From the IMG/VR virus record IMGVR_UViG_3300021401_000002: a stretch of 20,000 nucleotides of DNA. The stretch is one strand, 5' to 3'. A program made the position numbers and the translations under genes. Under the pieces are notes generated by a model. The model searched no databases. It was given only the letters and a program-made list of their open reading frames with translations, and had not been told where the DNA came from. Source of the stretch: an uncultured virus (IMG/VR IMGVR_UViG_3300021401_000002). Taxonomy: Duplodnaviria; Heunggongvirae; Uroviricota; Caudoviricetes. Shown in pieces: positions 2,998-18,343 of this stretch; positions within the stretch are counted from its first letter, which is position 1, and every line of letters begins with the position of its first letter.

Positions 2998-3206
2998 CAG
3001 ACTTCACCGGAGATGAAGAGGTAGGCATTGACGATTACATGGGTCATAGGACGGGCTCCGCTCGGCACGATGTTCGTTCTGTCGCAACCTTGTCGCCCGT
3101 CCTAACAACAGCCGGCAAAGTCAACCGAGATTTTGCGTCATCCGTGCCAAAAAGACCAGTCAAATAAATCCGCTGGTCTATCGGGATTCGAGCTTGGTTC
3201 TGAACC

Positions 3207-3235
3207 TTGACAGAGTGCACTACGCGCTGTAACGT
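3207..3235 (+). promoter_or_regulatory. Sigma70-type promoter for the RHH-cas12-CRISPR cassette
   Basis: TTGACA (3207-3212), a 17-nt spacer, then TAACGT (3230-3235). The predicted start site falls at or just before the ATG at 3244. Palindromes GGTTC-T-GAACC (3196-3206) and AGTGCACT (3214-3221) flank the -35 box. Confidence 0.7.
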
Positions 3236-3243
3236 GCTGGGAC

Positions 3244-3453
3244 ATGCCCAGACCTCGCAGCGATAACACTCAGTCGATGACGATCAAGATGCCTCGAAAG
3301 TGGGTCGAGGACGCAAGTGGCTGTGCCAAGCGGGCTACGGAGCATGGATTTGCAACGGTTACACGCACCGACATCTTTCGATCTGCGCTGCGAAAAGGTC
3401 TCGACGCAATCATCGAAGAGCAGCGCCAAAAAGAGAAGAGGCGAGAAAAATGA
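3244..3453 (+). CDS. Ribbon-helix-helix (CopG/Arc-like) transcriptional regulator (69 aa)
   Basis: RHH pattern: beta strand SMTIKMP, helix A, then helix B TRTDIFRSALRKGL. Its stop overlaps the cas12 start (ATGA at 3450-3453). Confidence 0.7.
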   Translation: MPRPRSDNTQSMTIKMPRKWVEDASGCAKRATEHGFATVTRTDIFRSALRKGLDAIIEEQRQKEKRREK

Positions 3454-5315
3454 CGATGATTCGAGTCTACAAGTACGGTCTTCTTCGACCCATTCAGAAC
3501 GAAGCGCTCGTACGGGCGCAGCTTCGTGCCAAACACGACTATCGCAACACGCTCATCGAAATCGAAAGAGGTCGACGTACGGCGATGAGAAACGTCGAGG
3601 AGCAACATTCTGAGCTTGCTACGGCGATGGCAGCTTCACGTGCAGCGCTCGTGGAGCTGGAAGAGTCACGCCAAGCCATTCGCCTTGCTCGCAGCAAGTC
3701 TCGCAGCCGATCCGAAACAAACGTGATGAAAGAACGCGTCAAACAGGCCCGAATCGTGAGACGTACGACATCGCAAGCACTCTATGATTGCCGAGCGCGT
3801 GTTCGTCCAGAAATGATTTCTGCACGCGATGTCATCAACGAACGCGCAGCCGAGCTCGTTCGTGGAGCCCGAGCGCTCACGACGTCGTATTGGGGCTCGT
3901 ATCTACTTGCCGAAGACGAGGTCAAGGCCGCTGCGAAGCAGCCGCTTTACGACGATTCTACGCCGAATGATCCTCGCTTTGAACGCTGGACTGGCGAAGG
4001 TCAAATCGGAATGCAAATTCAAAATGGCATGACGCCTGGCGAGGTGCTCAGCTCTGAAGATACACGACTTCGCATCAGCGAACCGAATTGGAACGACGGC
4101 AAGCACGTGCGAACTCTTCGCACTCTTTCGCTACGTGTCGGATCAGAAGGACGCAAGCCAGTTTGGGCATCTTGGCCTCTCATCATGCATCGACCTCTTC
4201 CGCCCGCGGCGCGTATCAAAAGATGCAACGTTTCTTTGCGCCGCCACAGCTCGCGTGAGATATGGTCCGCCGAGCTTACGATTGAATGCCCGAACGTAAC
4301 GAGCGCAATTCGCGAAGAGCACGGGTGGGGACGCGGCGGCGGAGTCGAAGGAGCCGTGGGAGTCGACATCGGCTGGCGTGTTGTCACGGATGACGACGCA
4401 GGTCTCCGTGTGTGCGCCTACGCATCAGAAGACGGTCAGGACATTGGTGAGCTTCGTCTTAGTCCTCATGAGATTACGCGTTTACGCAAGGCAGATGAAA
4501 TCAGGAGCATTCGAGACAAGAGGTTTGATGCGATTCGTCTCATTGTGCGAGACAAGCTTGCGACGCTCGAAGTTCCAGCGTGGCTTTCCATGTCGACGCT
4601 GCATATGCATGTGTGGCGTTCACCGGCTAGGCTTGTCTCGCTCTCGAAGCGTTGGAGCAAGGAGCGCTTCGCAAACGATGAAGAGGTCTTCGATTTGCTC
4701 GAGTCTTGGAGGTACTGGGACAGCCAGCACTACCAATGGGAATGCGATCAGCGCACCAAGGCGCTGCGACGGCGACGCGAAAAGTACCGAGTGTTCGGGG
4801 CTCGGCTCGCGGAAAAATACGAGGTGCTGGTACTCGAAGATCGAGCAGAAGATGACCGAACCAAACCCATGGATCTCCGAAAGTTCGCCCGCCGAGCTCA
4901 AACGGAGATGGAACCAGAGAACGAGACGGCAAGGTCAAACAGACACCTCGCAGCAACAAGCGAGCTACGCCAAGCCCTCGAAGAGGCTTTTATCTCCCAC
5001 GGCGGACGTGTCGAGCTTGCGCCATGTGAAGATACAACGCGAACGTGCACAGCGTGTGGCGTCGTCGATCGTGGATTGGATGCGGAAACTGAAATCGATG
5101 TAACGTGCTCGTCGTGTGGTGCCAAGCAAGACCAGGACGTGCGTGCGAGCAACAACCTTTGCGAGCGGTGGCGTAAAGCGCAAAATGCCGGAGGCGCTCG
5201 CAATGCCAAAGCGGCGAAATCAGAGGGGAGATGGAAAAAAGCAAGACGTCTTCGGACCGAAAAGCAGCAGCGAATGGGAACCTTTCGCAATGCCAGCGAT
5301 AACAGCGCAGAATGA
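3450..5315 (+). CDS. cas12m: Compact type V CRISPR effector, Cas12m (V-M, formerly V-U1)-like, TnpB superfamily (621 aa)
   Basis: RuvC-I AVGVDIGWR (D306), RuvC-II VLVLEDR (E463), zinc finger CTAC...CSSC and RuvC-III DQDVRA (D563). Motifs that recall Cas12m: LRAKHDYRNTL, a long helical REC insertion, YWGSY, RWTGEGQIGMQIQ, MHRPLP, WRSPARL. It sits 19 nt from a CRISPR array. Confidence 0.85.
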   Translation: MTMIRVYKYGLLRPIQNEALVRAQLRAKHDYRNTLIEIERGRRTAMRNVEEQHSELATAMAASRAALVELEESRQAIRLARSKSRSRSETNVMKERVKQARIVRRTTSQALYDCRARVRPEMISARDVINERAAELVRGARALTTSYWGSYLLAEDEVKAAAKQPLYDDSTPNDPRFERWTGEGQIGMQIQNGMTPGEVLSSEDTRLRISEPNWNDGKHVRTLRTLSLRVGSEGRKPVWASWPLIMHRPLPPAARIKRCNVSLRRHSSREIWSAELTIECPNVTSAIREEHGWGRGGGVEGAVGVDIGWRVVTDDDAGLRVCAYASEDGQDIGELRLSPHEITRLRKADEIRSIRDKRFDAIRLIVRDKLATLEVPAWLSMSTLHMHVWRSPARLVSLSKRWSKERFANDEEVFDLLESWRYWDSQHYQWECDQRTKALRRRREKYRVFGARLAEKYEVLVLEDRAEDDRTKPMDLRKFARRAQTEMEPENETARSNRHLAATSELRQALEEAFISHGGRVELAPCEDTTRTCTACGVVDRGLDAETEIDVTCSSCGAKQDQDVRASNNLCERWRKAQNAGGARNAKAAKSEGRWKKARRLRTEKQQRMGTFRNASDNSAE

Positions 5316-5334
5316 CAACTCTCTCCAGAGAGGA

Positions 5335-5962
5335 GTCTCAATGGCTGCGACGAGCCGTGCAATCGTCGACCGTGAGCGGCGCGACGGGCGGCACGACAGG
5401 TGCGGTCTGTCTCAATGGCTGCGACGAGCCGTGCAATCGTCGACGCCCAAGGACACGTGTACTTGGAATCCCTGCTGGGAGGTCTCAATGGCTGCGACGA
5501 GCCGTGCAATCGTCGACGCGCGCGGCACCGACGAGACGCTCGCGCACAGTTGCGTCTCAATGGCTGCGACGAGCCGTGCAATCGTCGACGCGGTGACACC
5601 TTTGCTCTCACCTTCGTTCGTGGGCTGTCTCAATGGCTGCGACGAGCCGTGCAATCGTCGACCTGCTGGCGGGCGCTGTGAGCGTACTCGTGTGGACCCT
5701 CGTCTCAATGGCTGCGACGAGCCGTGCAATCGTCGACCGCCGCAACCTGTGGCGCTCCCCAACGGCATCATCACGTGTCTCAATGGCTGCGACGAGCCGT
5801 GCAATCGTCGACGTCTCGTAGACGATCGCCCACTTGTACCTGCCCTCGTCGTGTCTCAATGGCTGCGACGAGCCGTGCAATCGTCGACTCCACGTGCTGA
5901 AGGCGACGATGCCGCCTGCGTACCGGGTCTCAATGGCTGCGACGAGCCGTGCAATCGTTGAC
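5335..5962 (+). CRISPR. CRISPR array with 9 repeats of 36 nt (GTCTCAATGGCTGCGACGAGCCGTGCAATCGTCGAC) and 8 spacers of 36-40 nt
   Basis: Repeats start at 5335, 5409, 5482, 5554, 5627, 5702, 5777, 5853 and 5927. Spacers are 38, 37, 36, 37, 39, 39, 40 and 38 nt and all differ. The last repeat has a C>T change (…ATCGTTGAC), consistent with + strand orientation. Confidence 0.98.
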
Positions 5963-5977
5963 ATCGGCACGTGGGCG

Positions 5978-6580
5978 TCAACGATTTCGTTCGCCATCTT
6001 CGCGCTGTTCGCGGGTTCCGTACAAGTAATCCGAGGGATTTTTCAAGCGAGCGACCTTGAACGCTTCCTTGAGCCGTTTGTACTTCCACACGAGATCATG
6101 CACGCGTTCGAATGACAAGAGCGAAAGATCGCCGCTCACGATCATCTTCACGATTGCTGCGCTAGCAGCTGTAGCCTCATGAAGAGGCGTCCCTGCGTGA
6201 GTAGCGAGCCGAAGAAATTTCTGCGCCTTCGATTCGATCTTCTCCCAGTCGACCTCTCCACTGGCTTCCACCCAAGGCATCTTGCTTTCGTGCTCTAGCT
6301 CGTACTCGTTCAATCGTTGCTCGAGTCCGTCAACGAACGAGCGAAGCTCCTCAGGGGTGCGAACATGTTTTACCGGAAGCAAATGCGTCGCGAAGCGATA
6401 GCCAGCGAGCCGCCAACTTGAAATGATCTCGTGGCGACGAGGCGAAGAAGACGCGCCTCGTGGTCCTTGCCGCTCGACTGGGTGAACACGTGCGATGAGG
6501 TCTTCGCACACTTGGCGAAAGAAAGCGTGCTCGATGGACTCTTCGTCTTCACCGTCACGCTTCGCCCCGGTGTAGTCCAC
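5978..6580 (-). CDS. Hypothetical protein (200 aa) with a DUF2786-like helical hairpin near the C-terminus
   Basis: GTG start 2 nt after the upstream stop. KFLRLATHAGTPLHEATAASAAIVKMI resembles the DUF2786 pattern 'KLL.LA....N.HEA.AA...A..L'. Confidence 0.6.
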   Translation of the reverse strand: MDYTGAKRDGEDEESIEHAFFRQVCEDLIARVHPVERQGPRGASSSPRRHEIISSWRLAGYRFATHLLPVKHVRTPEELRSFVDGLEQRLNEYELEHESKMPWVEASGEVDWEKIESKAQKFLRLATHAGTPLHEATAASAAIVKMIVSGDLSLLSFERVHDLVWKYKRLKEAFKVARLKNPSDYLYGTREQREDGERNR

Positions 6581-6582
6581 TG

Positions 6583-6768
6583 CTACTTCCCACCGCTATC
6601 GGGTTTTCGGCTTTTGGGTTTAGGCGTCGGAACGAATGGAGGAAACCGTAATACAGGTGTCGGAACTGAAACTGGCACTCCGTAATTGCGTGCTCCACAC
6701 ACGCATCGAGTCATTCGCCTAGCCTGAACGAGAATGCCACGCTTACAGAAATTACAACGCGTCCTCAC
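6583..6768 (-). CDS. Small zinc-ribbon-like protein (61 aa)
   Basis: GTG at 6768 overlaps the upstream stop (GTGA). It has a CNFC...CVC motif and a Pro/Lys-rich tail. Confidence 0.5.
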   Translation of the reverse strand: MRTRCNFCKRGILVQARRMTRCVCGARNYGVPVSVPTPVLRFPPFVPTPKPKSRKPDSGGK

Positions 6769-8159
6769 GTTCCACCTGCCTGATGATATTCCTCTAGTAG
6801 CTTCACGAGACTCACGGCCGCCACTTTGCAAAAGTCGTCGAGCGTTTGGTGAATGACGATCCCCACGCCTGGATCACTTTGTATCATGGCGCCGAGCATG
6901 AGCGCCATGTGCGCAACGAGCGCAATGCCCTGATCCGACGCAGCGTCCTCGGAGCTCGACGCGTCTGCAATGGCATCCCAGAGCTGGAGCGGTCCGGGCT
7001 CGAGCGCCTCGCGGATCACGCCCTCCTTTCCACGAGCGCGCACGAGCGCGAAGAACGACGCTGTTTGAAGGGCCACCGAGAGCCGAAGCTTGTCGAGCTC
7101 CGACGGCTCGCCCTCCTCGACCTCTTCCGCCTCTGCCCCTACCTCTTCTGCCTCTGCCCCTACCTCTTCTGCCTCTGCGTCTTCGACCTTTGTGTCCGTT
7201 GGAACTTGACCAGACGCGGTCTCCGTCTTGGTCTCTGTTCCGGCCTCTGGCGACGTCTTCGGTTTTGCTCCGTTCACACCGTTTGCGCCATTCGTTTTCG
7301 GCTTGGAGGTTTTCGCTGCTCGCTTTTGCTCTTGATACCACTCGTTGAACTCGGGCGGCAGTGACTCGCCGCCTCGACGTTGCAACATCGACATAGCCAT
7401 GACCATGAGCTTTGGACCGTGCTTTTCGAGGCCGGCGAAAATGCTATCGACAATCTTTTTCTTGAACGCTTCGGCCTCCTCGTCTGCCTTCTCCTTTTTC
7501 TTCTGTTCGTATTCGAGACCTCGGGCTGCAATTTCGATTTCACGAACAGCGGTCTCTTTGTCCGTATACGCCTGACGGACGCTGTCATGGTGAACCTCTC
7601 GCTTTTGGTAGATGTCGAGAAGATGCATCGTTCGATCGTCCAAACGCGCTTCTTTCTTAGAGACGTATTCCAAGACCGCAGGCATCAACCGTTCGGCGAT
7701 GCCTGCCTCGAACTGGGCATTGAGACCGCCAGCACCAGCAGCGCCACCATACATTCCCATGGCCCGACTACCGGGACCAGACAAGACCATGGATTGTGTC
7801 TCTTGTCCGCCGTACACCTTGAACATGAAACGAGAGCGGTTGTCGTGGTCTTTGGAATGGAACGCGAGCTCGTAAATGATGTCGCCTGCGGGCTGAAACG
7901 AAGCATCGTGACAGCAGACTCTCTCGACGATACGAACGACGGAATCGAGTGATATGTGAGGCCCTCGAAGATCTCGCTCGAACCACTCGCCTACGGGTTC
8001 GTCACGCATTCCGCCCTTGAGGCGGAGAGACATTCGAATGATCTTGCGCAGCGCAAGCTCGGCCTCATCGCCGACGAGCGGTTTCGAGTAGCAGAGCGCA
8101 TCGTCGATCGCGTTCGAGACCTGCCTCTTCGTTTCGGCTGAGAATTCCAGGGTTGCCAT
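6765..8159 (-). CDS. Hypothetical protein (464 aa) with a coiled-coil segment and an acidic repeat linker
   Basis: Long ORF with a charged helical central region and AEAEEVG repeats. Confidence 0.8.
   Translation of the reverse strand: MATLEFSAETKRQVSNAIDDALCYSKPLVGDEAELALRKIIRMSLRLKGGMRDEPVGEWFERDLRGPHISLDSVVRIVERVCCHDASFQPAGDIIYELAFHSKDHDNRSRFMFKVYGGQETQSMVLSGPGSRAMGMYGGAAGAGGLNAQFEAGIAERLMPAVLEYVSKKEARLDDRTMHLLDIYQKREVHHDSVRQAYTDKETAVREIEIAARGLEYEQKKKEKADEEAEAFKKKIVDSIFAGLEKHGPKLMVMAMSMLQRRGGESLPPEFNEWYQEQKRAAKTSKPKTNGANGVNGAKPKTSPEAGTETKTETASGQVPTDTKVEDAEAEEVGAEAEEVGAEAEEVEEGEPSELDKLRLSVALQTASFFALVRARGKEGVIREALEPGPLQLWDAIADASSSEDAASDQGIALVAHMALMLGAMIQSDPGVGIVIHQTLDDFCKVAAVSLVKLLEEYHQAGGT
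7120..7178. repeat. 21-nt in-frame tandem repeat (about 2.8 copies) encoding AEAEEV(G)
   Basis: The unit ACCTCTTCTGCCTCTGCCCCT is repeated within the 464-aa gene. Confidence 0.85.
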
Positions 8160-8188
8160 AGCCCTACATTTACTACGTGACGCAAGCC

Positions 8189-8218
8189 TTGCCTAGCCGT
8201 CCTGTGAAGCAGTAGTAT
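8189..8218 (+). promoter_or_regulatory. Candidate sigma70 promoter in the divergent intergenic gap
   Basis: TTGCCT (8189-8194), an 18-nt spacer, then TAGTAT (8213-8218), ending 8 nt before the ATG at 8227. Gene orientation switches at this point. Confidence 0.45.
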
Positions 8219-8226
8219 TGACGAAG

Positions 8227-9027
8227 ATGATGAACGCCAGCCTAAAACTGCGTTCCAAAACTAAACCGAAGCCGCGAGAGCGACTCACTTTAGAGGAACA
8301 AACCCAAAAAGACATCGATGAAGGACTGCTTACGATCGAAGAAGCTACCGCCCAATTCAAGTTGCACAATATCAAAGGTCTGACTTGTTTAGAATCGGTC
8401 AGGCGAGCCATTGTCGGAAAGCGCATCTCAGCGACTAGAGCGCAATGGCCAGCTCGTGGATTTCGAATCAAGAAATCAGAAGTAGAATCCCTCATCAAAA
8501 AATTGAAACCCGAAGTCGAAAAAGCAGCGCAGGGAATTCATAAACAGCTCTACGATTTCTTTGCCGCTGACCCATTGCACACTCCCGTTCTCGCTGTCTT
8601 ACAAGGTATTTCGACCTCCGCCGATGAAACCGAACGGATCTATCGGCTATTCAAAAGACATCAACCTACACTTCAAGCTTACAAAGCGAGACAAGCGCAT
8701 CTGGAATGGGAAAACAAACAAACCGAAGCAGCCAAGCAAGAACCCCCATGCGAAGGCTGCAAGAGAACCCACTTCCAGGCGCGACATGAAAGCGCCAATG
8801 TCGTCACCCAAGTTACTAGACGTCCACTCGACCCATGGTTACATGCAGGAACTCAGTTCGATGAATGGGAAATTGCAGCGCTCATCGATTTCAGAGAGAA
8901 GTGGCAATGCTCATCCTGCTTCATGTGGTTGCTCGGTGCTCCTGTCTCGAAAATGAAAGAGCTACTCGATGCTCAACGTCCAAAAGAGGTCTTGACATCT
9001 ACACCGCCCATCAGTGAAACAGGATAA
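8227..9027 (+). CDS. Excisionase/HTH_17-like DNA-binding protein with C-terminal CxxC pairs (266 aa)
   Basis: LLTIEEA...SVRRAIVGKRISATR...GFRIKKSEVESLI matches the winged-HTH excisionase-like pattern. CEGC and CSSC occur later. The start could be 8218, 8227 or 8230. Confidence 0.6.
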   Translation: MMNASLKLRSKTKPKPRERLTLEEQTQKDIDEGLLTIEEATAQFKLHNIKGLTCLESVRRAIVGKRISATRAQWPARGFRIKKSEVESLIKKLKPEVEKAAQGIHKQLYDFFAADPLHTPVLAVLQGISTSADETERIYRLFKRHQPTLQAYKARQAHLEWENKQTEAAKQEPPCEGCKRTHFQARHESANVVTQVTRRPLDPWLHAGTQFDEWEIAALIDFREKWQCSSCFMWLLGAPVSKMKELLDAQRPKEVLTSTPPISETG

Positions 9028-9050
9028 CGCTTTCAAAGAGGTCCAATTCC

Positions 9051-9764
9051 ATGCAATCGCCCCCGCCCCCGCAACAGCCTCCCTACGGTAACCCGCAGCA
9101 GCCGCCATTTGGCGGTCCACCGCACCGTCGTCCTCAGATCTTTGCTCCCATCGCGAGCCTCGCAGAGCTCAAAGACCAAAGCGAAGGTCGCATCCTTCGT
9201 TACGGCGAAGAGATTCGTGGTCGAAGACGCGTGCTCCAGAGGCTTCAAAATGAATGTGGCAACCTCGCCAACGCCGCTCACCACGCGATGCAAGATCCGC
9301 AGATGACCCCCGAGCAAAGGGCGCGCGCTGCCGCCGACGTCGACATGCTCGGCAAGTGGTACGCTGTCGTTGGTCAAGCGCTCGAGATCAACAAACAGTA
9401 CCTCGAAGACATCGTCCAAACCGAGTTCGTTCTGCAAGGCATCGCTCAGCGCTGGGTTGCGGGCATGCCGCCTGATCCGAGCCTGCTCGAACCGCTCACA
9501 GGCTCGCAGCCGCAGCCACAGCCACAGCCGCAACAGCAACAGCAACAGCAGCAACAGCAGCAAAACGCGCCAGAGCCTGAGCCCCAGCACTACGCGGCTT
9601 CTCCACCCGTAACTCAAGCTCAGGCTCCTGCGGCCCCTCATCGTATCGTACCCATGCCGCGAGCCGCTGCCATCGCACCACGTCAGCCTGTGCAAGAACA
9701 GCAACAATCGCCCGAAGAGCCTGCGAAAACGAACAGCGGCAGCGAGCCGCGGACGGCATCGTAG
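9051..9764 (+). CDS. Pro/Gln-rich hypothetical protein with a helical core and a poly-Gln tract (237 aa)
   Basis: SD-like AAGAGGT upstream. (QP)4 followed by Q11 at 9507-9563. Confidence 0.75.
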   Translation: MQSPPPPQQPPYGNPQQPPFGGPPHRRPQIFAPIASLAELKDQSEGRILRYGEEIRGRRRVLQRLQNECGNLANAAHHAMQDPQMTPEQRARAAADVDMLGKWYAVVGQALEINKQYLEDIVQTEFVLQGIAQRWVAGMPPDPSLLEPLTGSQPQPQPQPQQQQQQQQQQQNAPEPEPQHYAASPPVTQAQAPAAPHRIVPMPRAAAIAPRQPVQEQQQSPEEPAKTNSGSEPRTAS

Positions 9765-9811
9765 ACCGTTTTCCGTCAAAGGCGTATCATGAGGAACGAA
9801 AGTAGGTTCCC

Positions 9812-10018
9812 ATGGCTGTCGTCGGACTTCTCACGCTCATCGTCTGCATCCTCGGCCTCGTCGTCTATCTGTCTCTCACCTCCTTCTCTAGAGCGACCTT
9901 CACCGACGTCGCTCGCATCTGTTTTGCGGCTGGGCTCTTGGCCTTCCTCATGAGTCAGGGCGCCTCGAGTTGCTCCATGGGCACCAGCGGCGCTTCCTCG
10001 AGCAGCCAGCATCGATAA
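9812..10018 (+). CDS. Small two-transmembrane-helix protein (68 aa)
   Basis: Two hydrophobic stretches, VVGLLTLIVCILGLVVYLSL and ICFAAGLLAFLM, with AGGT upstream. Confidence 0.65.
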   Translation: MAVVGLLTLIVCILGLVVYLSLTSFSRATFTDVARICFAAGLLAFLMSQGASSCSMGTSGASSSSQHR

Positions 10019-10034
10019 GAAGAGAGAAAGAGGC

Positions 10035-10238
10035 ATGCCGCTCATTCATCGCTGCACCCAAGCCGCGTTCGAAAAGAACGTTCGCACCCTTCATCACGAA
10101 AATCGCACGAGGCGAAGAAAGCGAAGCGCGAAGCAAATCCTCGCTATCGCCTACTCCACCGCTCGCCGCGCCGCCGCGTTCTACAGGAAGAGACCCGCGT
10201 GGCTATTCCGCCGTGCCACTCACCGAACAACGCGATGA
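10035..10238 (+). CDS. Small basic hypothetical protein (67 aa)
   Basis: A purine-rich SD (AAAGAGG) precedes the ATG, and the stop overlaps the next start (ATGA). Confidence 0.6.
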   Translation: MPLIHRCTQAAFEKNVRTLHHENRTRRRKRSAKQILAIAYSTARRAAAFYRKRPAWLFRRATHRTTR

Positions 10239-10771
10239 CCTCTTCATTTTCTTCTCCGTCACCCGACCTGGAGTCCGTGTACTACTCGCCCAGAAGAGCT
10301 CGCCCAGTTCCGAACCCTCCGCGTGCGACGTTCGACGCCGATCGCATCATCAGCGGAAAACCTCCTACTCAGCAAGGATCGCTCTGGCAAGGCGCTGCGA
10401 GCACCGTTCACACGGCCGACATGCACGGCTTCGACGTCGTCGTACTCTGCGCGCAAGAGTTCCAGCCCATCCTTCCGCGTTCCATCGAGGTCATTCGTTT
10501 TCTGAGTGACGACTGCGAGCTCACGATGCCCCATCTCAAGGAAGCAGCCTTTGTCAGTGGAAAGGTCGAGCGCCGCGTACGAGCCGGAAAACATGTACTA
10601 TGCACGTGTTTTGCGGGTTTCAACCGCAGCGGGCTCGTCGTCGCGCTCGCGACGATGAAGCTCACGAAGAAGCCCGGGCGTGAAGTTGTAGACCACATCC
10701 AACGCAGACGCGAAGGCGCGCTTTGCAACGAGAGCTTCGCTCGAGCGCTCCGCAGGCTGAGAGCGGTTTGA
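10235..10771 (+). CDS. Dual-specificity / tyrosine phosphatase family protein (178 aa)
   Basis: P-loop CX5R signature VLCTCFAGFNRSGLVVAL, an upstream acid loop FLSDD, and a C-terminal IQRRREGALCNESF. ATGA-coupled start at 10235. Confidence 0.85.
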   Translation: MTSSFSSPSPDLESVYYSPRRARPVPNPPRATFDADRIISGKPPTQQGSLWQGAASTVHTADMHGFDVVVLCAQEFQPILPRSIEVIRFLSDDCELTMPHLKEAAFVSGKVERRVRAGKHVLCTCFAGFNRSGLVVALATMKLTKKPGREVVDHIQRRREGALCNESFARALRRLRAV

Positions 10772-10772
10772 C

Positions 10773-11093
10773 GTGAGCGCTGAAGAAGAGATCGATAGCT
10801 ACCTTGCACGGTCGCCGATTCAAGACTTAGAAGACTTAGAAGACTGGGACAGGAAATACTTCCAGCACTTCATCCAACGCCTACGCGACCATAAAGGTCC
10901 TAAATTATTCATCGTCGACTTCCAAGAAGTTCCCATGCTTATGAAGATACCTGGATGTCTCAGAATGGAAGGAACGCATATCGGAAACTACCGCATTTAT
11001 ATCTTCGGCGTACCGTGCGAACTTGAAATGCCAACTTGGATTAGCCAAGGACCGGACCGTCCTGAATACATCATAAAAGAACGCAAACCATGA
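10773..11093 (+). CDS. Hypothetical protein (106 aa)
   Basis: GTG start 1 nt after the previous stop, and ATGA overlap with the next gene. Confidence 0.65.
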   Translation: MSAEEEIDSYLARSPIQDLEDLEDWDRKYFQHFIQRLRDHKGPKLFIVDFQEVPMLMKIPGCLRMEGTHIGNYRIYIFGVPCELEMPTWISQGPDRPEYIIKERKP

Positions 11094-11716
11094 GCGCCGC
11101 CCAAACAACTGATAGTAGTCTCAATGGCTGCGACGAGCCATGCAATCGTCGACGCGACTGGGTCGATGTCGGGAGCGCTAAGCAGCTCGCGCTCTACGAA
11201 GCCGATCCCAACTACTCGGGACGCCCAGTCGTCTACGACTTCGAAGACCAAGAGGTCGAGCCTCAAGCGATTCTTCCAGGGCTTCGCAAGGATGTGGGGT
11301 TTGCGAAGAGGTCTTTCCGGAAATGGAAGGACGACAAGGGCCAAGTCATCGAGAAGGCCCCGCGCTACAAAGGCGCGACTTTCTACTCAAAACTCATTCT
11401 CCTTCCGACCGATGTGCACGGCAAACCCCTCAGGCTCGGCAACTTCCAGGTGATGCTCCACGGGAGCAGCAGCTACATCGTCTGCGACTGGTCCAAGCCG
11501 CTCGGCGAAAACGTCGTCTACGTCTCGTCGAAGGGATTTCGCGACGCCTGCATCCTCTGCGGCATGTTCCATCGCTGGGAGCGCTGGCAAGGACCGCTCC
11601 GTAGAAACCAATCACGACACAAGGCCGTCTTCGGCCGCGAAGCAAAACCGAAGCCGCCGCCTCCGCCCGAAGCACCCGATGCCGACGATCTTGGCGAGGA
11701 CGTCACTTTGCGCTAA
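11090..11716 (+). CDS. Hypothetical protein (208 aa) whose 5' end contains a CRISPR repeat copy
   Basis: ATGA-coupled start. The frame stays open through the repeat, which reads as SLNGCDEPCNRRR. Confidence 0.7.
   Translation: MSAAQTTDSSLNGCDEPCNRRRDWVDVGSAKQLALYEADPNYSGRPVVYDFEDQEVEPQAILPGLRKDVGFAKRSFRKWKDDKGQVIEKAPRYKGATFYSKLILLPTDVHGKPLRLGNFQVMLHGSSSYIVCDWSKPLGENVVYVSSKGFRDACILCGMFHRWERWQGPLRRNQSRHKAVFGREAKPKPPPPPEAPDADDLGEDVTLR
11118..11153 (+). repeat. Solitary CRISPR repeat, 35/36 identical to the array consensus
   Basis: GTCTCAATGGCTGCGACGAGCCATGCAATCGTCGAC, with a single G>A at repeat position 23. No second repeat lies at spacer distance on either side. Confidence 0.97.
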
Positions 11717-11745: not shown

Positions 11746-12098
11746 GGGAGCGAAATGGTTTCGACAGTGAGAGGAAGATCCCATCTGCGTATGAGCGGCG
11801 CTCGATCCGGTCTGACCAATCGAGCAAGCCCAATTGCGAACGACAACGCAATCGCGAACGCGGCCTAAGAACCGCTTCGCCATCAATGACGTAGACGACT
11901 CGGTATCGTCATTGGTGTGAACCCAACAGAGTCACCATTACCCATTACGAGCGCGAGTCTCGCAAAACCTCGCTGGTGGACGGTGAAAATCGGGAAACCG
12001 ATTCAGCCCCTTCTGTCGGTGGAGCCAATCACCGAATATGTACGTAGATGATGGGATACGAAACTTGCTGGACCTGGGTTCGATTCCCAGCGCTTCCA
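11746..12098 (+). ncRNA. ssrA: tmRNA (one-piece, about 353 nt), tag peptide (A)ANDNAIANAA
   Basis: The 5' end GGGAGCG-AAATGGTTTCGAC pairs with the 3' end CGCTTCC-A, giving a G3·U alanine-identity wobble. T-arm CTGGG-TTCGATT-CCCAG. Tag ORF at 11836-11868: GCG AAC GAC AAC GCA ATC GCG AAC GCG GCC TAA. CCA is not encoded. Confidence 0.95.
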
Positions 12099-12297
12099 CT
12101 AAGTTGTAGAATACAAATAACCTTGAAGTACTTCTTCAAGTCCGTGAAAATTTGGCAGACCTTTTCGGCCGTCGGGACGAATCGTCAAAGAGCAGAACCT
12201 GACGCAGAGGACTTGCCCATTTTCGATCGGCTGTGGCATACAGGTTACTCGCCTTTCACGCGTCCGATACGCGAACGCGGACTGACAATACCCACAG

Positions 12298-13469: not shown

Positions 13470-14507
13470 TTGAGCGTCTCGAACCGCGCTCGCCTTCAAC
13501 GCCTTGCCCGTGAGCAAGGTAGCAAAGCCGCGGCAGCGCGCGCACTGAAAGTCTCCGCGAGCGCCGTACGTCGATGGCTCGAGCGCGGCGTGCCCGATGC
13601 GGTCAAGACCCTCCTCAAGCGCAAGACCAAGAAGTACTACGAGCCGCCGAAGCCGAAGGCCAAGACGAAGGCCAGGGCCAAGGCCAAACCTCAACAGGCG
13701 CAGTCAAAAGCCTCTGCCAAAAAACTGTCAGCCAAAGACAGTTTCATCCTCAAGTCACTTGAGCGTAACCACCTCCAGCCGAGTACTCGAAAAAAGTACC
13801 TCAAAGAGCTGAGCGCCAACGCACGCAAAGTCCTCGCAGCAAAAACACCGTCGGAACCAAAGACTAAGCCAAAAAAGAAACTCACCGAACAAGACCTCTT
13901 CATCCTGAGCTCGTGGAGCGATCTCAGCGAAGACGTTCAGCAGAAATATTTCAAAAAGCTCTCTCCGCTGGGCAAGGCACGCATTCGAAAGCAGGAACGC
14001 GAACATGCCAAAGAACTCGAACAAGACGAGCGAGCCCGAGCAGCAGCGGAAGAAGAACGAAGAAAAATACCGACTCCTGAAAGGATGCTGCGGGACCTCG
14101 ACAATGCACTCAATGATGAAGCCTGGAAAGCGATTCGAGAAGAGGTTCGATTCGACAAGCACATCACTGAGCCAATAGTAATTCAAAAAGACGAAGACCT
14201 TGCAGAAGCATCCATAAAAGCTTCCGTGATCCCTGATGAAAACCGTACCGTCAGAAACCCAAATCGCTTTTACACTGTAATCGCAGCTGTCACTCAATAC
14301 CCACCTGACGGGGACTACAGCCAAAAACCTGTAAAAAGCAAAACGCCTCTTACCATGTTCTATTTCAGTACAGAATCTGTGAATTCGGAAGACAAGCTCC
14401 CCGAAGCTATTGCAAAAGCCATCAACAACATTCGCGGCATGCTTCCAGGAAATGCACCCATCGCTATTGTGGGTACGCACGTGAGAATGGCGCGGGCAAA
14501 AACATGA
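13470..14507 (+). CDS. Lys-rich protein with an N-terminal HTH and an internal duplicated module (345 aa); candidate terminal or replication-initiation protein
   Basis: HTH AAAARALKVSASAVRRWLERG. Its stop overlaps the polB start (ATGA). The TTG start is uncertain, and the function is inferred from position only. Confidence 0.7.
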   Translation: MSVSNRARLQRLAREQGSKAAAARALKVSASAVRRWLERGVPDAVKTLLKRKTKKYYEPPKPKAKTKARAKAKPQQAQSKASAKKLSAKDSFILKSLERNHLQPSTRKKYLKELSANARKVLAAKTPSEPKTKPKKKLTEQDLFILSSWSDLSEDVQQKYFKKLSPLGKARIRKQEREHAKELEQDERARAAAEEERRKIPTPERMLRDLDNALNDEAWKAIREEVRFDKHITEPIVIQKDEDLAEASIKASVIPDENRTVRNPNRFYTVIAAVTQYPPDGDYSQKPVKSKTPLTMFYFSTESVNSEDKLPEAIAKAINNIRGMLPGNAPIAIVGTHVRMARAKT

Positions 14508-17500
14508 GAATAAGCCGCCTCCTTCGTCCGTTCGAACCCGGACCAGACCGCGAAACCGTTGCAGCCGCTGCCGACATCGAAAGCAAAAAACCTCTCTCAG
14601 AAGAGATGGGCTTCGAACGACCCTTCATGGTTGGCGTTTACGTAAATGGGCAATACAAAAGCTTCTTCGATGAATTGCATCTCAACCCAAACGATCCAGA
14701 GCGTGCATTCAAGGATGGTGGCTGCGTGCGTGAGTTCTTCAGGTGGCTAACGGAGTCGCCAGAAGGACGAAAACTTCAATATCGAGCGCGTAGCAAAAAA
14801 CATCCAAAGGTCGTCATCTACGGACACAACCTCGGAGGGTTCGATGCCCTTCATTTCCTCAGATTGTTACGTAGACCAGAGTACGCCAGAGACTTCGATG
14901 TTCGTATCATTGCCTCAGGCTCTCAACTGCTAGAGCTTGAAATCACTGAACGTGACTTCAAAGTAGAAAACGAAGATCGACCTTTCGATGATGACGAAGA
15001 TGATTCCGCGCCTGTAGCAGACAAGGAAAAACAACCCAAAAGGCGTAGACTTCGTAAGTGGGTATTCCGAGACTCGATGAGACTCATGCCGGGCTCGCTA
15101 GATTCGATTGGAAAGAAGCTGGTACTAGACACGCGTAAAATCAAAATGAACGAATCTCTTGGCGGTCTTTCTACTCCTACCAAAGAGAGAAAAGCGTGGG
15201 AAGAATACAACAGTGTAGACTGCAAAACGGTAGTAGGGCTCGTGGATGAACTACGAAAACAACTCGACATATTGGGCGGTCATCTCAAAATGACACTCCC
15301 ATCTTCATCGATGGACTTATTTAGACGCGAGTACCTAACACGATTCCTCAAAGCCGAGGTCATAGACGGAAAGCCTAATCCTTTTCATGGGAAACCAGGA
15401 ATTCCTCGCGAAAGACACTTCCCCGGATGCCGATGCCTCTGTGGAATGTGCCGCCAGGAAAAATGCTTCAAAAGTTGCCCGAACGCTCAGCAAGAAAGAC
15501 CTCCTTGTCCCGCAGCACCTTATGGGTGCCTACACGCATGGCTTTCGATCTCTCCAACCGGCGCTCGCAAGGGTGGACATACGGAAGTGTTTCACCATCA
15601 AGAAAAGGAAGGAAAACTCAGATACTACGACCGCAACTCGAGCTACGCCGCCGCAATGACGGAGCCGATGCCACTCAAGCTTCAGTACTCCTTCGGACCT
15701 GGACGAGGACCACAGACACTTGAAGAGTGCAAAGGGTATGCAGATGATGGACTCATTGGATTTGTAGAGGCCATCGTCTATATTCCAGAAACTGTCAATA
15801 TCCCTCCACTGGCAGTCATCTACGATGACAAACTAGTTTTCCCAGTGGGAACCTTTTATGGGCGTTGGGACTGGTGCGAGCTAAAACACATAGAAGAAAT
15901 TGGAGGGCACATAGTTCTTATTCACCGAAGCGTTTGGTATCTATCGTCTCCGTTGATTAGATCGATGATGGAGGACATATTTGCAAAACGAGCGGATGCC
16001 AAAGCAAAAAATAATAAGCCCATGTCTGAAACGTGCAAATTAGTAGGGAACTCTTTGTACGGAAAATTCTTGATGTCCCCCGAACGAGATGAGCTTTTCA
16101 GTGCTCCTATCGGAAGTGAACCAGAGGGCGCCCAAGCGGTATCACCCGAAGAACTCGCTTACGCCAAAGATGACGAGCCCATCTTATGGCGCAGACCAAA
16201 ATACAACGAAGCTGATTACTTCTTGCCGCACATCGGATCTCACATCACCGCACTCGCCCGTGAAGCCCTGTGGCTTCAAATGCAAAAGGTCGAATCACTT
16301 GGTGGTCGAGTATACTACTCAGACAGTGTCACTGGTGACCGTACAACCATAGTTCGCTCGCCGCAAAACCGAGTGATAATCGAACCAATCCAGAAATTGT
16401 GGGAACGATTCAAGGCTGACAAAATCCCAGCAGAAAAAGAATTTGCCGTTACTGATAATTGGCAAGCGCTTGCAATGACCTCCGACGGCACACAGGGATG
16501 GTTTCCACTAAAGCAAATTATTAGACACCAAACCCACAAGACGACGTGGCTAATTTCAAATAAGCAGGGCCAAACATCTGTAACCACAGATCATGGCATT
16601 ATGTGTGACCCCAGAACCGCAATCGTACCAGAAAAATTCGTTGCAAATGGTGCCAACTTTATCAAACTCAAAGCTACACCATCAACAAGAACAGATGAAA
16701 CGATCGACCTGTTTGAATTTCTGAAAGACTTCAGTAGCAACAAATATGGCAATATAACAAATCTAGAGTTTGAAGCCCACGACGATTACATAACCATAAA
16801 GGGCTGGCGAACCATCGGTGGAGAAGCGATAAAAGCGAACTTCATCATGAATCAACCACTCACGATTACTGCTAAACAAGTCGTCGAATTAGCCAAGAAA
16901 TCCGGAATCAAAACCACAGAGAAATCCGTTATCAGTACGCGCAGTCGCATCAAAAAACACGGAGCGCGATCCTCTAACGCCAACGACGATGCCCACCGAG
17001 GCATTCATGGGGAAGTAAGATTCAAACGGTTCTACCGCCCAAATACCCCAGAAATCGGTGCACTCTTACGCCTACTTGGCGCTTACATTTCAGAAGGAAG
17101 CGCCAGCTTTCCTAACGAGAAGGGAAATCGTTGGCTCTTTTCAATTGCTCAAAACCGCCGAGAATGGCTCGAAAATTTACTTCACGACATGGAAATCATC
17201 GCGCCGCATTCGAATGCCAAGATATATGAGACATCTCGCGACGTCGAAGCTGGCAAACCAGGAAGCGGAATGTTCGCACTACGCTCCGGCGCAGCTCCAC
17301 TCTCATGTTTTTTCGCAGCACTTGGCGGGCGACGATCCGACGGAAAGAAGCTGCCATCATTCGTATACGACCTGACCGCGACTGACGCGATGATACTCTG
17401 GGAAAAGCTTCTAGAAGGAGACGGTCACAGAATACTGTCAAAAAGAGGAGGTGAAATAATCGAAACTGGTCAAGTATGCTACACGACTAAATCCCAAGAA

Positions 17501-18343
17501 CTAACGGCTGGACTCTCATATCTGCTAGATCAACTCTCAATAGAGCACGCGATAAATTATCGCGCGGACAAAAAAGTTTGGTCGCTTAGAACGAGGCCTG
17601 CCGGTTCTGGCAGAACCAGAAAAACCACTCACATAGAGATAGAGCAGAACCAATCAAAATATGTTTATGACCTAGAAGTTCAAGGGGCTCACACATTCGT
17701 TGATGGCGTCGGAAGAGTACTGCTCCACAACACCGACAGTGTGATATGCGATGTAGATATGCCATCGGGCAAGGAATTGGGCGAGTGGAAGCAGGAACAC
17801 GCGAACATCAGTCGCCTTGCCGGTGAATTCGATAGCCCAAAATCTTATAGGCTCACGTCACTTGTCAAAGGCGAATACTTCGAAGACCACCATGTCGACA
17901 CGTGTACGCTCAAAGATGAAGAAGACGAGAAGGGCAAACCCAAATGTCCAGGTTGCGCTACCGAACTCGTACACATCAAGGGACTACACAAAAGCAAGCA
18001 CACGGCTGAAAACTTCGAAAAACTCAAACGTGGTGAAACCATTCGAGTACCCGATCAACCTCCTAAGCTTGGCGAGCTCATGGCCATCAACTTCAAGTCT
18101 TACGAGACCAAGAGCCGCGACAAGAGCAACCTGCGCTGGAGAGACGGCGAGAACGGTGAAGAAGTCATCAGCAAACGCGTTCGTCAGGGCAGGAACCCAG
18201 ATACCAAGGCCCTTGTCTTCAATGAAGACACGCCAACCATCTATGTCGAAGACGGTGAGGCTCGCGAAACTACCCAGCGAGTTGTCTTCAGCTACTTTCG
18301 TCGCTGGCGCGACCATGTCCTCAACGCCACCGCCTCAGGATAA
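14504..18343 (+). CDS. polB: Family B DNA polymerase, protein-primed type, intein-containing (1279-aa precursor, 810 aa after splicing)
   Basis: ExoI ADIES, ExoII HNLGGFD, FRDSMRL, ExoIII YNSVD, motif A YDRNSSY, a TPR1-like insertion (PPL...LVFPVGTFYGRW..EL), motif B KLVGNSLYGKF, motif C YSD|TDS, the KxY motif PKSY, and IKG. Confidence 0.92.
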   Translation: MRISRLLRPFEPGPDRETVAAAADIESKKPLSEEMGFERPFMVGVYVNGQYKSFFDELHLNPNDPERAFKDGGCVREFFRWLTESPEGRKLQYRARSKKHPKVVIYGHNLGGFDALHFLRLLRRPEYARDFDVRIIASGSQLLELEITERDFKVENEDRPFDDDEDDSAPVADKEKQPKRRRLRKWVFRDSMRLMPGSLDSIGKKLVLDTRKIKMNESLGGLSTPTKERKAWEEYNSVDCKTVVGLVDELRKQLDILGGHLKMTLPSSSMDLFRREYLTRFLKAEVIDGKPNPFHGKPGIPRERHFPGCRCLCGMCRQEKCFKSCPNAQQERPPCPAAPYGCLHAWLSISPTGARKGGHTEVFHHQEKEGKLRYYDRNSSYAAAMTEPMPLKLQYSFGPGRGPQTLEECKGYADDGLIGFVEAIVYIPETVNIPPLAVIYDDKLVFPVGTFYGRWDWCELKHIEEIGGHIVLIHRSVWYLSSPLIRSMMEDIFAKRADAKAKNNKPMSETCKLVGNSLYGKFLMSPERDELFSAPIGSEPEGAQAVSPEELAYAKDDEPILWRRPKYNEADYFLPHIGSHITALAREALWLQMQKVESLGGRVYYSDSVTGDRTTIVRSPQNRVIIEPIQKLWERFKADKIPAEKEFAVTDNWQALAMTSDGTQGWFPLKQIIRHQTHKTTWLISNKQGQTSVTTDHGIMCDPRTAIVPEKFVANGANFIKLKATPSTRTDETIDLFEFLKDFSSNKYGNITNLEFEAHDDYITIKGWRTIGGEAIKANFIMNQPLTITAKQVVELAKKSGIKTTEKSVISTRSRIKKHGARSSNANDDAHRGIHGEVRFKRFYRPNTPEIGALLRLLGAYISEGSASFPNEKGNRWLFSIAQNRREWLENLLHDMEIIAPHSNAKIYETSRDVEAGKPGSGMFALRSGAAPLSCFFAALGGRRSDGKKLPSFVYDLTATDAMILWEKLLEGDGHRILSKRGGEIIETGQVCYTTKSQELTAGLSYLLDQLSIEHAINYRADKKVWSLRTRPAGSGRTRKTTHIEIEQNQSKYVYDLEVQGAHTFVDGVGRVLLHNTDSVICDVDMPSGKELGEWKQEHANISRLAGEFDSPKSYRLTSLVKGEYFEDHHVDTCTLKDEEDEKGKPKCPGCATELVHIKGLHKSKHTAENFEKLKRGETIRVPDQPPKLGELMAINFKSYETKSRDKSNLRWRDGENGEEVISKRVRQGRNPDTKALVFNEDTPTIYVEDGEARETTQRVVFSYFRRWRDHVLNATASG
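16325..17731 (+). mobile_element. Intein with LAGLIDADG homing endonuclease (469 aa) inserted in polymerase motif C (pol-c site)
   Basis: It begins SVTGD after YYSD and has block B VTTDHGI, LAGLIDADG-like blocks LLGAYISEG and LLEGDG, block F VYDLEV and a terminal HN followed by +1 Thr. It is visibly more AT-rich than most of the window. Confidence 0.95.

Follow-up and report, generated by a model that had tools for sequence, protein, structure and literature searches.

A type V-M CRISPR cassette on an apparent large mobile element of soil encodes a Cas12m that probably silences DNA rather than cutting it

The window analysed here is a stretch of 20,000 nucleotides (nt) from an uncultured virus record (IMG/VR IMGVR_UViG_3300021401_000002). 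On its plus strand it carries a compact CRISPR cassette built around an effector of 621 amino acids (aa). We propose that this cassette, a type V-M locus, probably lies on a large mobile element, and that its effector, a Cas12m, would act by analogy with characterised orthologues as an RNA-guided DNA binder that silences its targets and does not cut them. We favour a non-cutting effector because the tested Cas12m orthologues bind DNA without cutting it, whether their RuvC triad reads Asp-Glu-Asp (D-E-D), His-Asp-Asp (H-D-D) or Asn-Asp-Asp (N-D-D). Bigelyte et al. (2024) collected 134 Cas12m variants, and the orthologues reported there as tested (four D-E-D, two H-D-D and two N-D-D) all bound double-stranded DNA (dsDNA) in a manner that depended on the protospacer-adjacent motif (PAM), and none cleaved it (PMC11013384). 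In the same report, purified ribonucleoproteins (RNPs) of MsCas12m and GoCas12m showed neither target nor collateral cleavage, and the D274A mutant of MsCas12m still processed its precursor CRISPR RNA (pre-crRNA) (PMC11013384). Likewise, conversion of the Cas12m2 triad from H-D-D to D-E-D is described as not restoring cutting (PMC10442227).

Results

Layout of the cassette

The cassette and the candidate promoter in front of it comprise the following features:

3207..3235, plus strand: candidate promoter, with a perfect TTGACA −35 hexamer (3207-3212), a 17-nt spacer and a weak TAACGT −10 hexamer (3230-3235)
3244..3453, plus strand: small protein of 69 aa, a putative ribbon-helix-helix (RHH)-like DNA binder, whose stop overlaps the cas12m start (ATGA)
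3450..5315, plus strand: cas12m, type V-M effector of 621 aa, with RuvC residues D306/E463/D563 and a zinc-ribbon TNB domain
5335..5962, plus strand: CRISPR array, in which eight spacers (36-40 nt) separate nine repeats of 36 nt

The TGA of the 69-aa open reading frame (ORF) overlaps the ATG of cas12m, the gap between the cas12m stop and the array is 19 nt, and a consensus scan found no terminator-like site between the two on the plus strand. Because of these features, the small gene, cas12m and the array would probably form one transcription unit. A 258-nt contig of one metatranscriptome was identical to positions 3288-3545 (0 differences) and bridged the junction of the 69-aa ORF and cas12m, which is a weak hint that the cassette is expressed.

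A preliminary description of this DNA had reported a compact unit of promoter, small gene, 621-aa effector and nine-repeat array; the two ORFs and the array at 5335-5962 were borne out, all on the plus strand. The cassette had also been seen to oppose its surroundings, and the genes on either side of it (614-2997 and 5978-10045) indeed lie on the minus strand. The reported lack of adaptation genes held as well: no cas1, cas2 or cas4 was found among the 18 main ORFs of the window (Pfam) or among 82 further ORFs of at least 70 aa (PADLOC). In this the cassette agrees with type V-M systems, which are described as having no adaptation genes (PMC10691335).

Family and fold of the effector

Sequence and predicted structure both identify the effector as a Cas12m of type V-M (formerly V-U1), complete over its full length. 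The PADLOC model Cas12u1, which was built for the V-U1 group that is now type V-M (Cas12m), matched the effector with an E-value of 6.6e-85 and aligned residues 3-576 to profile positions 2-532 of 533. The sole Pfam match was PF07282, the Cas12f1-like TNB zinc ribbon, at residues 505-570. The best sequence match in the PDB was 23vw_A, deposited as 'CRISPR-associated DNA-binding protein Cas12m' (E 4.3e-57), with further matches to Cas12m2 (8hio and 8hhl, 4.8e-24), UnCas12m4a (5e-20) and GoCas12m (8pm4, 6e-9).

An AlphaFold2 model of the effector, built with 30 homologues, reached a predicted local distance difference test score (pLDDT) of 86 and a predicted template modelling score (pTM) of 0.73, and it contained a long coiled-coil REC insertion (helices 18-143). 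When this model was searched with Foldseek, Cas12m and Cas12m2 entries filled the top four rows, with E-values from 6.5e-31 to 3.1e-24. The best of them was 8hhl_A, a Cas12m2 (E 6.5e-31; template modelling (TM) scores 0.69/0.72), and the row after these four, a Cas12f, stood at 2.3e-12. Model, Foldseek rows and Pfam match agree with the Cas12m fold, which combines a WED domain, a coiled-coil REC insertion, a RuvC with a helical insertion and a zinc-ribbon TNB. The hidden Markov model (HMM) search and the structure prediction, both of which the preliminary description had proposed as checks, thus point to Cas12m. Together with the lack of adaptation genes, the profile, sequence and fold matches uphold its view of a minimal, Cas12m-like (type V-M) system.

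RuvC triad and phylogenetic position

D306, E463 and D563 align to the RuvC-I, RuvC-II and RuvC-III columns, which confirms the earlier observation that the canonical triad is complete, and 23vw_A has D, E and D aligned at the same three positions. The D-E-D triad was found in 102 of the 120 closest homologue clusters, the other 18 being N-E-D, D-E-E, N-D-D and four single variants, and in 147 of 183 tree leaves. These leaves comprised the homologue clusters, proteins from viral contigs and genome contigs, and three named references. The tree was made with FastTree and rooted on the H-D-D mycobacterial Cas12m with no TnpB outgroup, and several of its deep nodes are weakly supported.

In this tree, the sister of the window effector is a 71%-identical metagenomic protein (support 1.0) that keeps D-E-D. 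The window effector falls within a seven-leaf clade that is D-E-D throughout (support 0.91), and this clade is nested five nodes deep in a 132-leaf Cas12m clade (support 0.76), 111 leaves of which are D-E-D. The protein of Virus Rctr197k, the D-E-D MsCas12m and the H-D-D mycobacterial form all lie outside the 132-leaf clade. These results show that an intact D-E-D is the normal state for the window effector's branch of Cas12m. The effector also has an insertion of eight residues right after E463, where the model has a low-confidence segment (467-482). Among the 12 closest homologues listed, only the two closest relatives have this insertion in common with it, which makes the lid region unlike that of most homologues.

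Several earlier interpretations change with this placement. D-E-D had been taken as the mark of a cleavage-competent lineage, but it is the majority state, and the four D-E-D Cas12m tested in print gave no dsDNA cleavage. A lineage intermediate between TnpB and Cas12m, the other suggestion, was not supported, given the deep nesting inside the 132-leaf Cas12m clade (in a tree without a TnpB outgroup), the full Cas12m architecture with its coiled-coil REC insertion, and the true nine-repeat array with a pseudoknot repeat. The premise that Cas12m has a His/Asp/Asp site holds for clade 2 but not for Cas12m as a whole, because the published triads differ by clade: HEK/HQK in clade 1, HDD in clade 2, DED/NED in clade 3 and DED/DND/NED in clade 4 (PMC10442227). 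Nesting within characterised non-cutting clades had been named as the sign of an ordinary V-M system; the effector does sit inside Cas12m, but the characterised MsCas12m and the H-D-D form are outside its 132-leaf clade.

Repeat structure and a solitary repeat

Eight of the nine repeats are identical, and the terminal one carries a C to T change at repeat position 33 that turns a G-C pair into G-U. When up to three mismatches were allowed, the window contained 10 matches to the repeat, compared with 0 in 200 shuffles. On the plus strand, the repeat can form a 3-bp stem (nt 9-11/20-22) interleaved with a 6-bp stem (nt 14-19/29-34), with 9/9 pairs formed, and the same stem positions have been published for the crRNA pseudoknot of PmCas12m and Cas12m2 (10.64898/2026.03.26.714355; PMC10442227).

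Covariation was examined in 42 distinct repeats of 36-37 nt, each from an array adjoining a Cas12m homologue. The tested pseudoknot was named from the window repeat and the literature, which somewhat favours the structure, and its pairing was kept in 90.7% of cells versus 63.4% in column shuffles, with 0 of 500 shuffles as high; slid controls gave 29-50%. Double-sided changes in the stems numbered 103 versus 32 expected, and all nine pairs showed compensatory changes. Plain minimum-free-energy folding of the repeat was no better than shuffles (z −0.39), and the pseudoknot was visible by covariation only. In one related locus (L001:7801-8517), a single array contains two repeat forms with a compensatory short-stem pair, GGCT...AGCC versus GGCC...GGCC.

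The in silico search for a trans-activating crRNA (tracrRNA) gave a longest exact anti-repeat of 9 nt in the 20-kb window, and none adjoined the cassette. The lack of a long anti-repeat and of a terminator between gene and array fits one transcript on which, as known from characterised systems, Cas12m itself would carry out the processing. The exact repeat was absent from IMG/VR. The tenth repeat match in the window stands apart from the array:

11118..11153, plus strand: solitary tenth repeat at a distance of 5.2 kb from the array; its one mismatch is in a loop, and both stems are intact

This solitary repeat falls within the first codons of ORF 11090-11716, and it was present with the same flanks in contigs of two other sequencing runs. 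It could yield a single crRNA-like RNA. The guide that follows it had a best match of 13/18 in the window and none in related loci. Solitary same-strand repeats occurred in 10 of the 58 Cas12m loci examined (the window counted), for example at L120:1849, L141:393 and L124:6505, and all 10 were on the plus strand. Some are separated from the array by 6-7 kb, one is located about 115 nt upstream of cas12m, and several of the 10 are degenerate array-edge copies. Guides after the solitary repeats of five other loci had no local target.

Proposed mechanism and competing explanations

By analogy with characterised orthologues, Cas12m would cut its own pre-crRNA within the repeats without a tracrRNA, and each crRNA would consist of a 5' pseudoknotted repeat handle and a guide of about 17-20 nt. 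The RNP would then bind PAM-flanked dsDNA tightly and block transcription or replication of the target without cutting it. Most likely, the element would use this activity to counter mobile elements that compete with it or to shut down particular genes. As the window has no adaptation genes, the acquisition of new spacers would depend on machinery from outside it. The small upstream protein would most likely serve as a dimeric DNA-binding regulator of the operon.

Several points weigh against a purely silencing effector of this kind. To our knowledge, no member of the effector's own 132-leaf clade has been assayed, and the characterised Cas12m share only about 20-34% identity with it. Conservation in a 30-sequence alignment is 90% or more at each of D306, E463 and D563, which suggests selection for some metal-dependent function that binding alone need not explain. 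The spacers gave no target in any of the collections searched: no match exceeded 23 of 36-40 bases in the window itself, matches to GenBank phages and PLSDB plasmids were at chance level only (E 0.2-0.7), and there was no protospacer in 401 Myxococcota genomes (best E 1.5e-5 per genome) or in 1.8 Mb of related loci. The library behind the metatranscriptome contig may contain DNA. Finally, the single transcription unit and the regulatory role of the small protein are both steps that we infer, and they are counted on this side.

Two observations on the array were set aside. The first 25 nt of spacer 3 (5518-5553) matched at 24/25 and 23/25 positions in two Myxococcota genomes and at 19/19 in a third (L167, L168 and L165). 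These partial matches were judged to be chance, as the DNA is GC-rich and the sites have no common flanking motif. Contigs of two runs skip from 5334 to 5927; a variant without the array was considered, and the skip was instead read as an assembly collapse of the repeats.

The first alternative is an active RNA-guided nuclease, in which the D-E-D RuvC cuts or nicks target DNA and destroys the element's competitors. The canonical and conserved triad is what such an enzyme would have, and clades 3 and 4 have been speculated to be capable of two-metal catalysis (PMC10442227). The published assays cover other sub-clades than that of the window effector, and its lid region, with the insertion after E463, differs from that of most homologues. 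However, all four D-E-D Cas12m in print are reported without dsDNA cleavage, purified MsCas12m, itself D-E-D, and GoCas12m showed no collateral activity (PMC11013384), Cas12m2 still did not cut once D-E-D had been restored (PMC10442227), and the best PDB match, with D/E/D aligned, was deposited under the name of a DNA-binding protein. By this analogy, we consider DNA cutting by the window effector unlikely.

A second alternative makes the system a programmable repressor of host or element genes, with the solitary repeat as a fixed guide, the small protein setting expression and immunity only secondary; we regard this as quite improbable. A binding-only effector fits gene regulation, the solitary repeat has intact stems, lies on the same strand and is kept in the contigs of other runs, such repeats recur on the plus strand in the 10 of 58 loci, and the spacers matched nothing in the viruses or plasmids searched. 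Yet the solitary-repeat guide reached no better than 13/18 in the window and had no match in related loci, and the guides of the five other loci likewise lacked targets. Several of the 10 solitary copies are, moreover, degenerate edges of arrays, and eight diverse spacers resemble an immunity array.

That the captured array and effector are a decaying or inert passenger without function is very improbable: the array is short, and the window offers no adaptation genes and no identifiable spacer targets in the collections searched, but the 621-aa frame is unbroken, keeps every conserved motif and is predicted to fold with confidence, 8/9 repeats are identical, contigs of other runs show 0 differences over 2,185 bases, the 71%-identical orthologue keeps D-E-D, and the metatranscriptome contig is a possible transcript.

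Elements of these readings can be combined with the silencing function that we prefer. A soil element, possibly a virus, might carry a binding-only Cas12m as a built-in repressor, with the coupled dimeric small protein setting the operon level, the solitary repeat as a hard-wired guide, and D-E-D retained for metal-dependent strand holding or a conditional nick. We offer this picture as a speculation with little chance of being right as a whole.

The small upstream protein and the promoter region

A full HMMER scan of 1.84 billion representatives returned 12 genuine small homologues of the 69-aa protein with 37-73% identity; one further match, a spurious repetitive protein, was dropped. Eleven of the 12 remote homologues begin with MPRxxS, and P0130 begins with MARPT. 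The conserved MPRxxS points to 3244 as the true start, not the internal Met of one public gene call.

Members of the family share a short segment at the N-terminus that looks like a strand and, after it, two helices, a pattern that resembles RHH proteins. No Pfam family matched the 69-aa protein at E≤10, none of the 13 family members matched RHH families at E≤1, and the family profile reached RHH proteins of the PDB (2k9i, 8u12) only at E 0.74-0.79. The monomer AlphaFold2 model had two helices and no strand, and a VIA-align fold search with it gave Z≤4.8, with RHH antitoxins among the rows, not above noise. Prediction of a homodimer gave an interface score (interaction prediction score from aligned errors, ipSAE) of 0.56 versus 0.00 for the best control, with a partner pLDDT of 82 and at least 98% of contacts agreeing across three runs; the ipSAE mark was reached by 21/30 solved homomers and by 0/23 proteins solved as single chains. 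The predicted contacts involve residues 1-5 and 33-46 (58-aa form), as expected for an RHH dimer. On these models, the small protein is probably a dimeric RHH-like DNA binder. Its earlier designation as an RHH gene is consistent with the sequence pattern and the predicted homodimer, but it found no match in Pfam or in the RHH families.

No homologue of the small protein was found beside cas12m in 153 related loci, and no small upstream ORF recurred in 114 evaluable loci. In L022/L023, the one family member found is 7 kb away from a cas12m, and the ORF that comes after it is unrelated. A role as a general Cas12m partner was rejected, since none of the 153 related loci has a neighbouring homologue, and by sequence comparison the small protein is lineage-specific.

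The candidate promoter sits in a 246-nt divergent intergenic region between the minus-strand ORF that ends at 2997 and the 69-aa ORF. A promoter had been claimed here; its −35 hexamer is perfect, but the −10 hexamer matches the consensus at only 3/6 positions, and a consensus promoter scan reported no plus-strand promoter at 3207-3235, the candidate being below the scan threshold. Transcription starting from this candidate would leave the 69-aa ORF nearly leaderless. Immediately next to the −35 hexamer, upstream of the gene for the 69-aa protein, is a short palindrome, GGTTC-T-GAACC at 3196-3206, a possible operator for that protein.

Carrier element and neighbouring genes

The carrier looks like a large (about 125-129 kb) uncultivated mobile element of soil metagenomes. 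Two contigs, 129,016 and 124,887 bp long, carry the exact Cas12m or a member of its cluster at ≥90% identity, a 128,903-bp contig carries the exact small protein, and almost no ORF of the window has a Pfam family. Large contigs with exact or related genes and few known families argue for a discrete large mobile element and not a chromosome. The window stretch was found in 20 runs from 19 studies, all of them labelled as soil metagenomes, and contigs of two runs matched 2,185 bases of the window without a difference.

Positions 6765-8159 on the minus strand encode a protein of 464 aa that belongs to no known family and contains an acidic EAEEVG repeat. Homologues with 57-98% identity to it occur on metagenome contigs 112-128 kb long, which suggests a small lineage of related large elements.

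Of the claim that the system is virus-borne, carriage by what looks like a mobile element is supported, but no PHROG structural or packaging family was matched among the 18 main ORFs of the window, which covers 20 kb of about 125-129 kb. IMG/VR contained no relatives of three neighbouring proteins, and two neighbouring proteins had no GenBank phage matches.

Further features of the window are:

10199-10771, plus strand: dual-specificity phosphatase (PF00782, E 3.5e-08; phrog_10650)
11746-12101, plus strand: full-length tmRNA gene, scored at 108.5 bits by Rfam RF00023, for which ARAGORN gives the tag peptide ANDNAIANAA
13470-14507, plus strand: helix-turn-helix protein
14504-18343, plus strand: protein-primed family B DNA polymerase (PF03175) of 1279 aa with a LAGLIDADG intein

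Relatives of the phosphatase occur near Cas12m homologues in two metagenome loci (L030 and L008). The transfer-messenger RNA (tmRNA) gene is either encoded by the element or the mark of an integration site, and there are no recognisable chromosomal genes around it. A Myxococcota host call from the tmRNA was rejected, as the matches were limited to conserved cores. The nearest phage polymerases are tectiviral and distant, at 23-29% identity. A drop in GC content across the 13470-18343 block, to 46-49% from about 57%, suggests that this block was acquired as a separate module.

Discussion

The window locus adds one natural D-E-D Cas12m on a mobile element, and dozens on virus-assigned contigs are already public. 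The strong conservation of D-E-D in a family whose tested members do not cut is a puzzle on which the clade of the window effector would bear. Both the putative small regulator coupled to cas12m and the solitary repeats give a hint of a regulatory use of a natural CRISPR-interference-like effector, and the 621-aa effector is a further compact candidate for a DNA-binding scaffold.

Comparison with known systems

Cas12j (CasPhi) of huge phages resembles the window system in being a compact type V system that has a single effector, lacks an adaptation module and is thought to target competitors. It is, however, a Cas12 of another subtype, matched by Foldseek only at E 4.6e-07 with a TM of about 0.3, and CasPhi cuts DNA.

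MmCas12m/Cas12m2 and GoCas12m (8hhl, 8hio, 8pm4) have the same fold as the window effector (TM 0.69/0.72 and 0.68/0.70), down to its long coiled-coil REC insertion, and their crRNA pseudoknot is laid out in the same way. They differ in being His-Asp-Asp proteins of clade 2, with 20-22% identity in structural alignment, and in their actinobacterial origin. MsCas12m of Allomeiothermus silvanus (pMESIL02) and other D-E-D Cas12m are described with D-E-D, an adjoining array, a single crRNA and no other cas genes, as in the window (PMC11013384). Unlike the window effector, MsCas12m lies outside the 132-leaf clade (29.9% identity by tblastn) and is plasmid-borne in a cultured bacterium. Its D274-independent pre-crRNA processing and its failure to cut DNA are reported from experiment (PMC11013384).

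Virus-borne Cas12m is already on record and not new. An alignment-based scan of IMG/VR gave 61 loci with Cas12m homologues, many with an array directly downstream. In one of them (L093:3813-16879, on a 47-kb IMG/VR contig), Cas12m and its array stand between a tyrosine integrase and minor-tail/baseplate genes, a clear example of V-M carriage by a temperate tailed phage. Virus Rctr197k (KX853510.1, Caudoviricetes, 197 kb) has, like the window, a D-E-D Cas12m homologue (33.6% identity) followed directly by an annotated CRISPR region. Rctr197k and the IMG/VR loci have no neighbouring genes in common with the window, and their effectors are annotated as transposase-like only ('similar to transposase' in Rctr197k). 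The Rctr197k record (L155) annotates CRISPR regions in two places and, about 5 kb away from the Cas12m homologue, another transposase-like gene. A 2025 study of a landfill virome describes viral effectors that cluster with Cas12m/V-U1 (PMC12607003).

A close parallel is the V-M locus of myxophage MV-1, for which a preprint of September 2026 claims the first phage Cas12m (10.64898/2026.09.14.751636). As described there, the MvCas12m locus is, like the window cassette, a virus-assigned V-M locus whose effector adjoins the array, with no cas1, cas2 or cas4, no tracrRNA, eight spacers without identified targets and a conserved RuvC D-E-D. MvCas12m has 610 aa and D305/E463/D555, compared with 621 aa and D306/E463/D563 in the window, and MV-1 comes from a wastewater biofilm, whereas the window is known from soil metagenomes (10.64898/2026.09.14.751636). 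The main text of the preprint mentions neither a small upstream gene nor a solitary repeat, and the window has both (10.64898/2026.09.14.751636). Apart from the coupled lineage-specific small protein and the solitary repeat, every part of the window locus had already been described, and these two are minor additions to the known range of type V-M systems.

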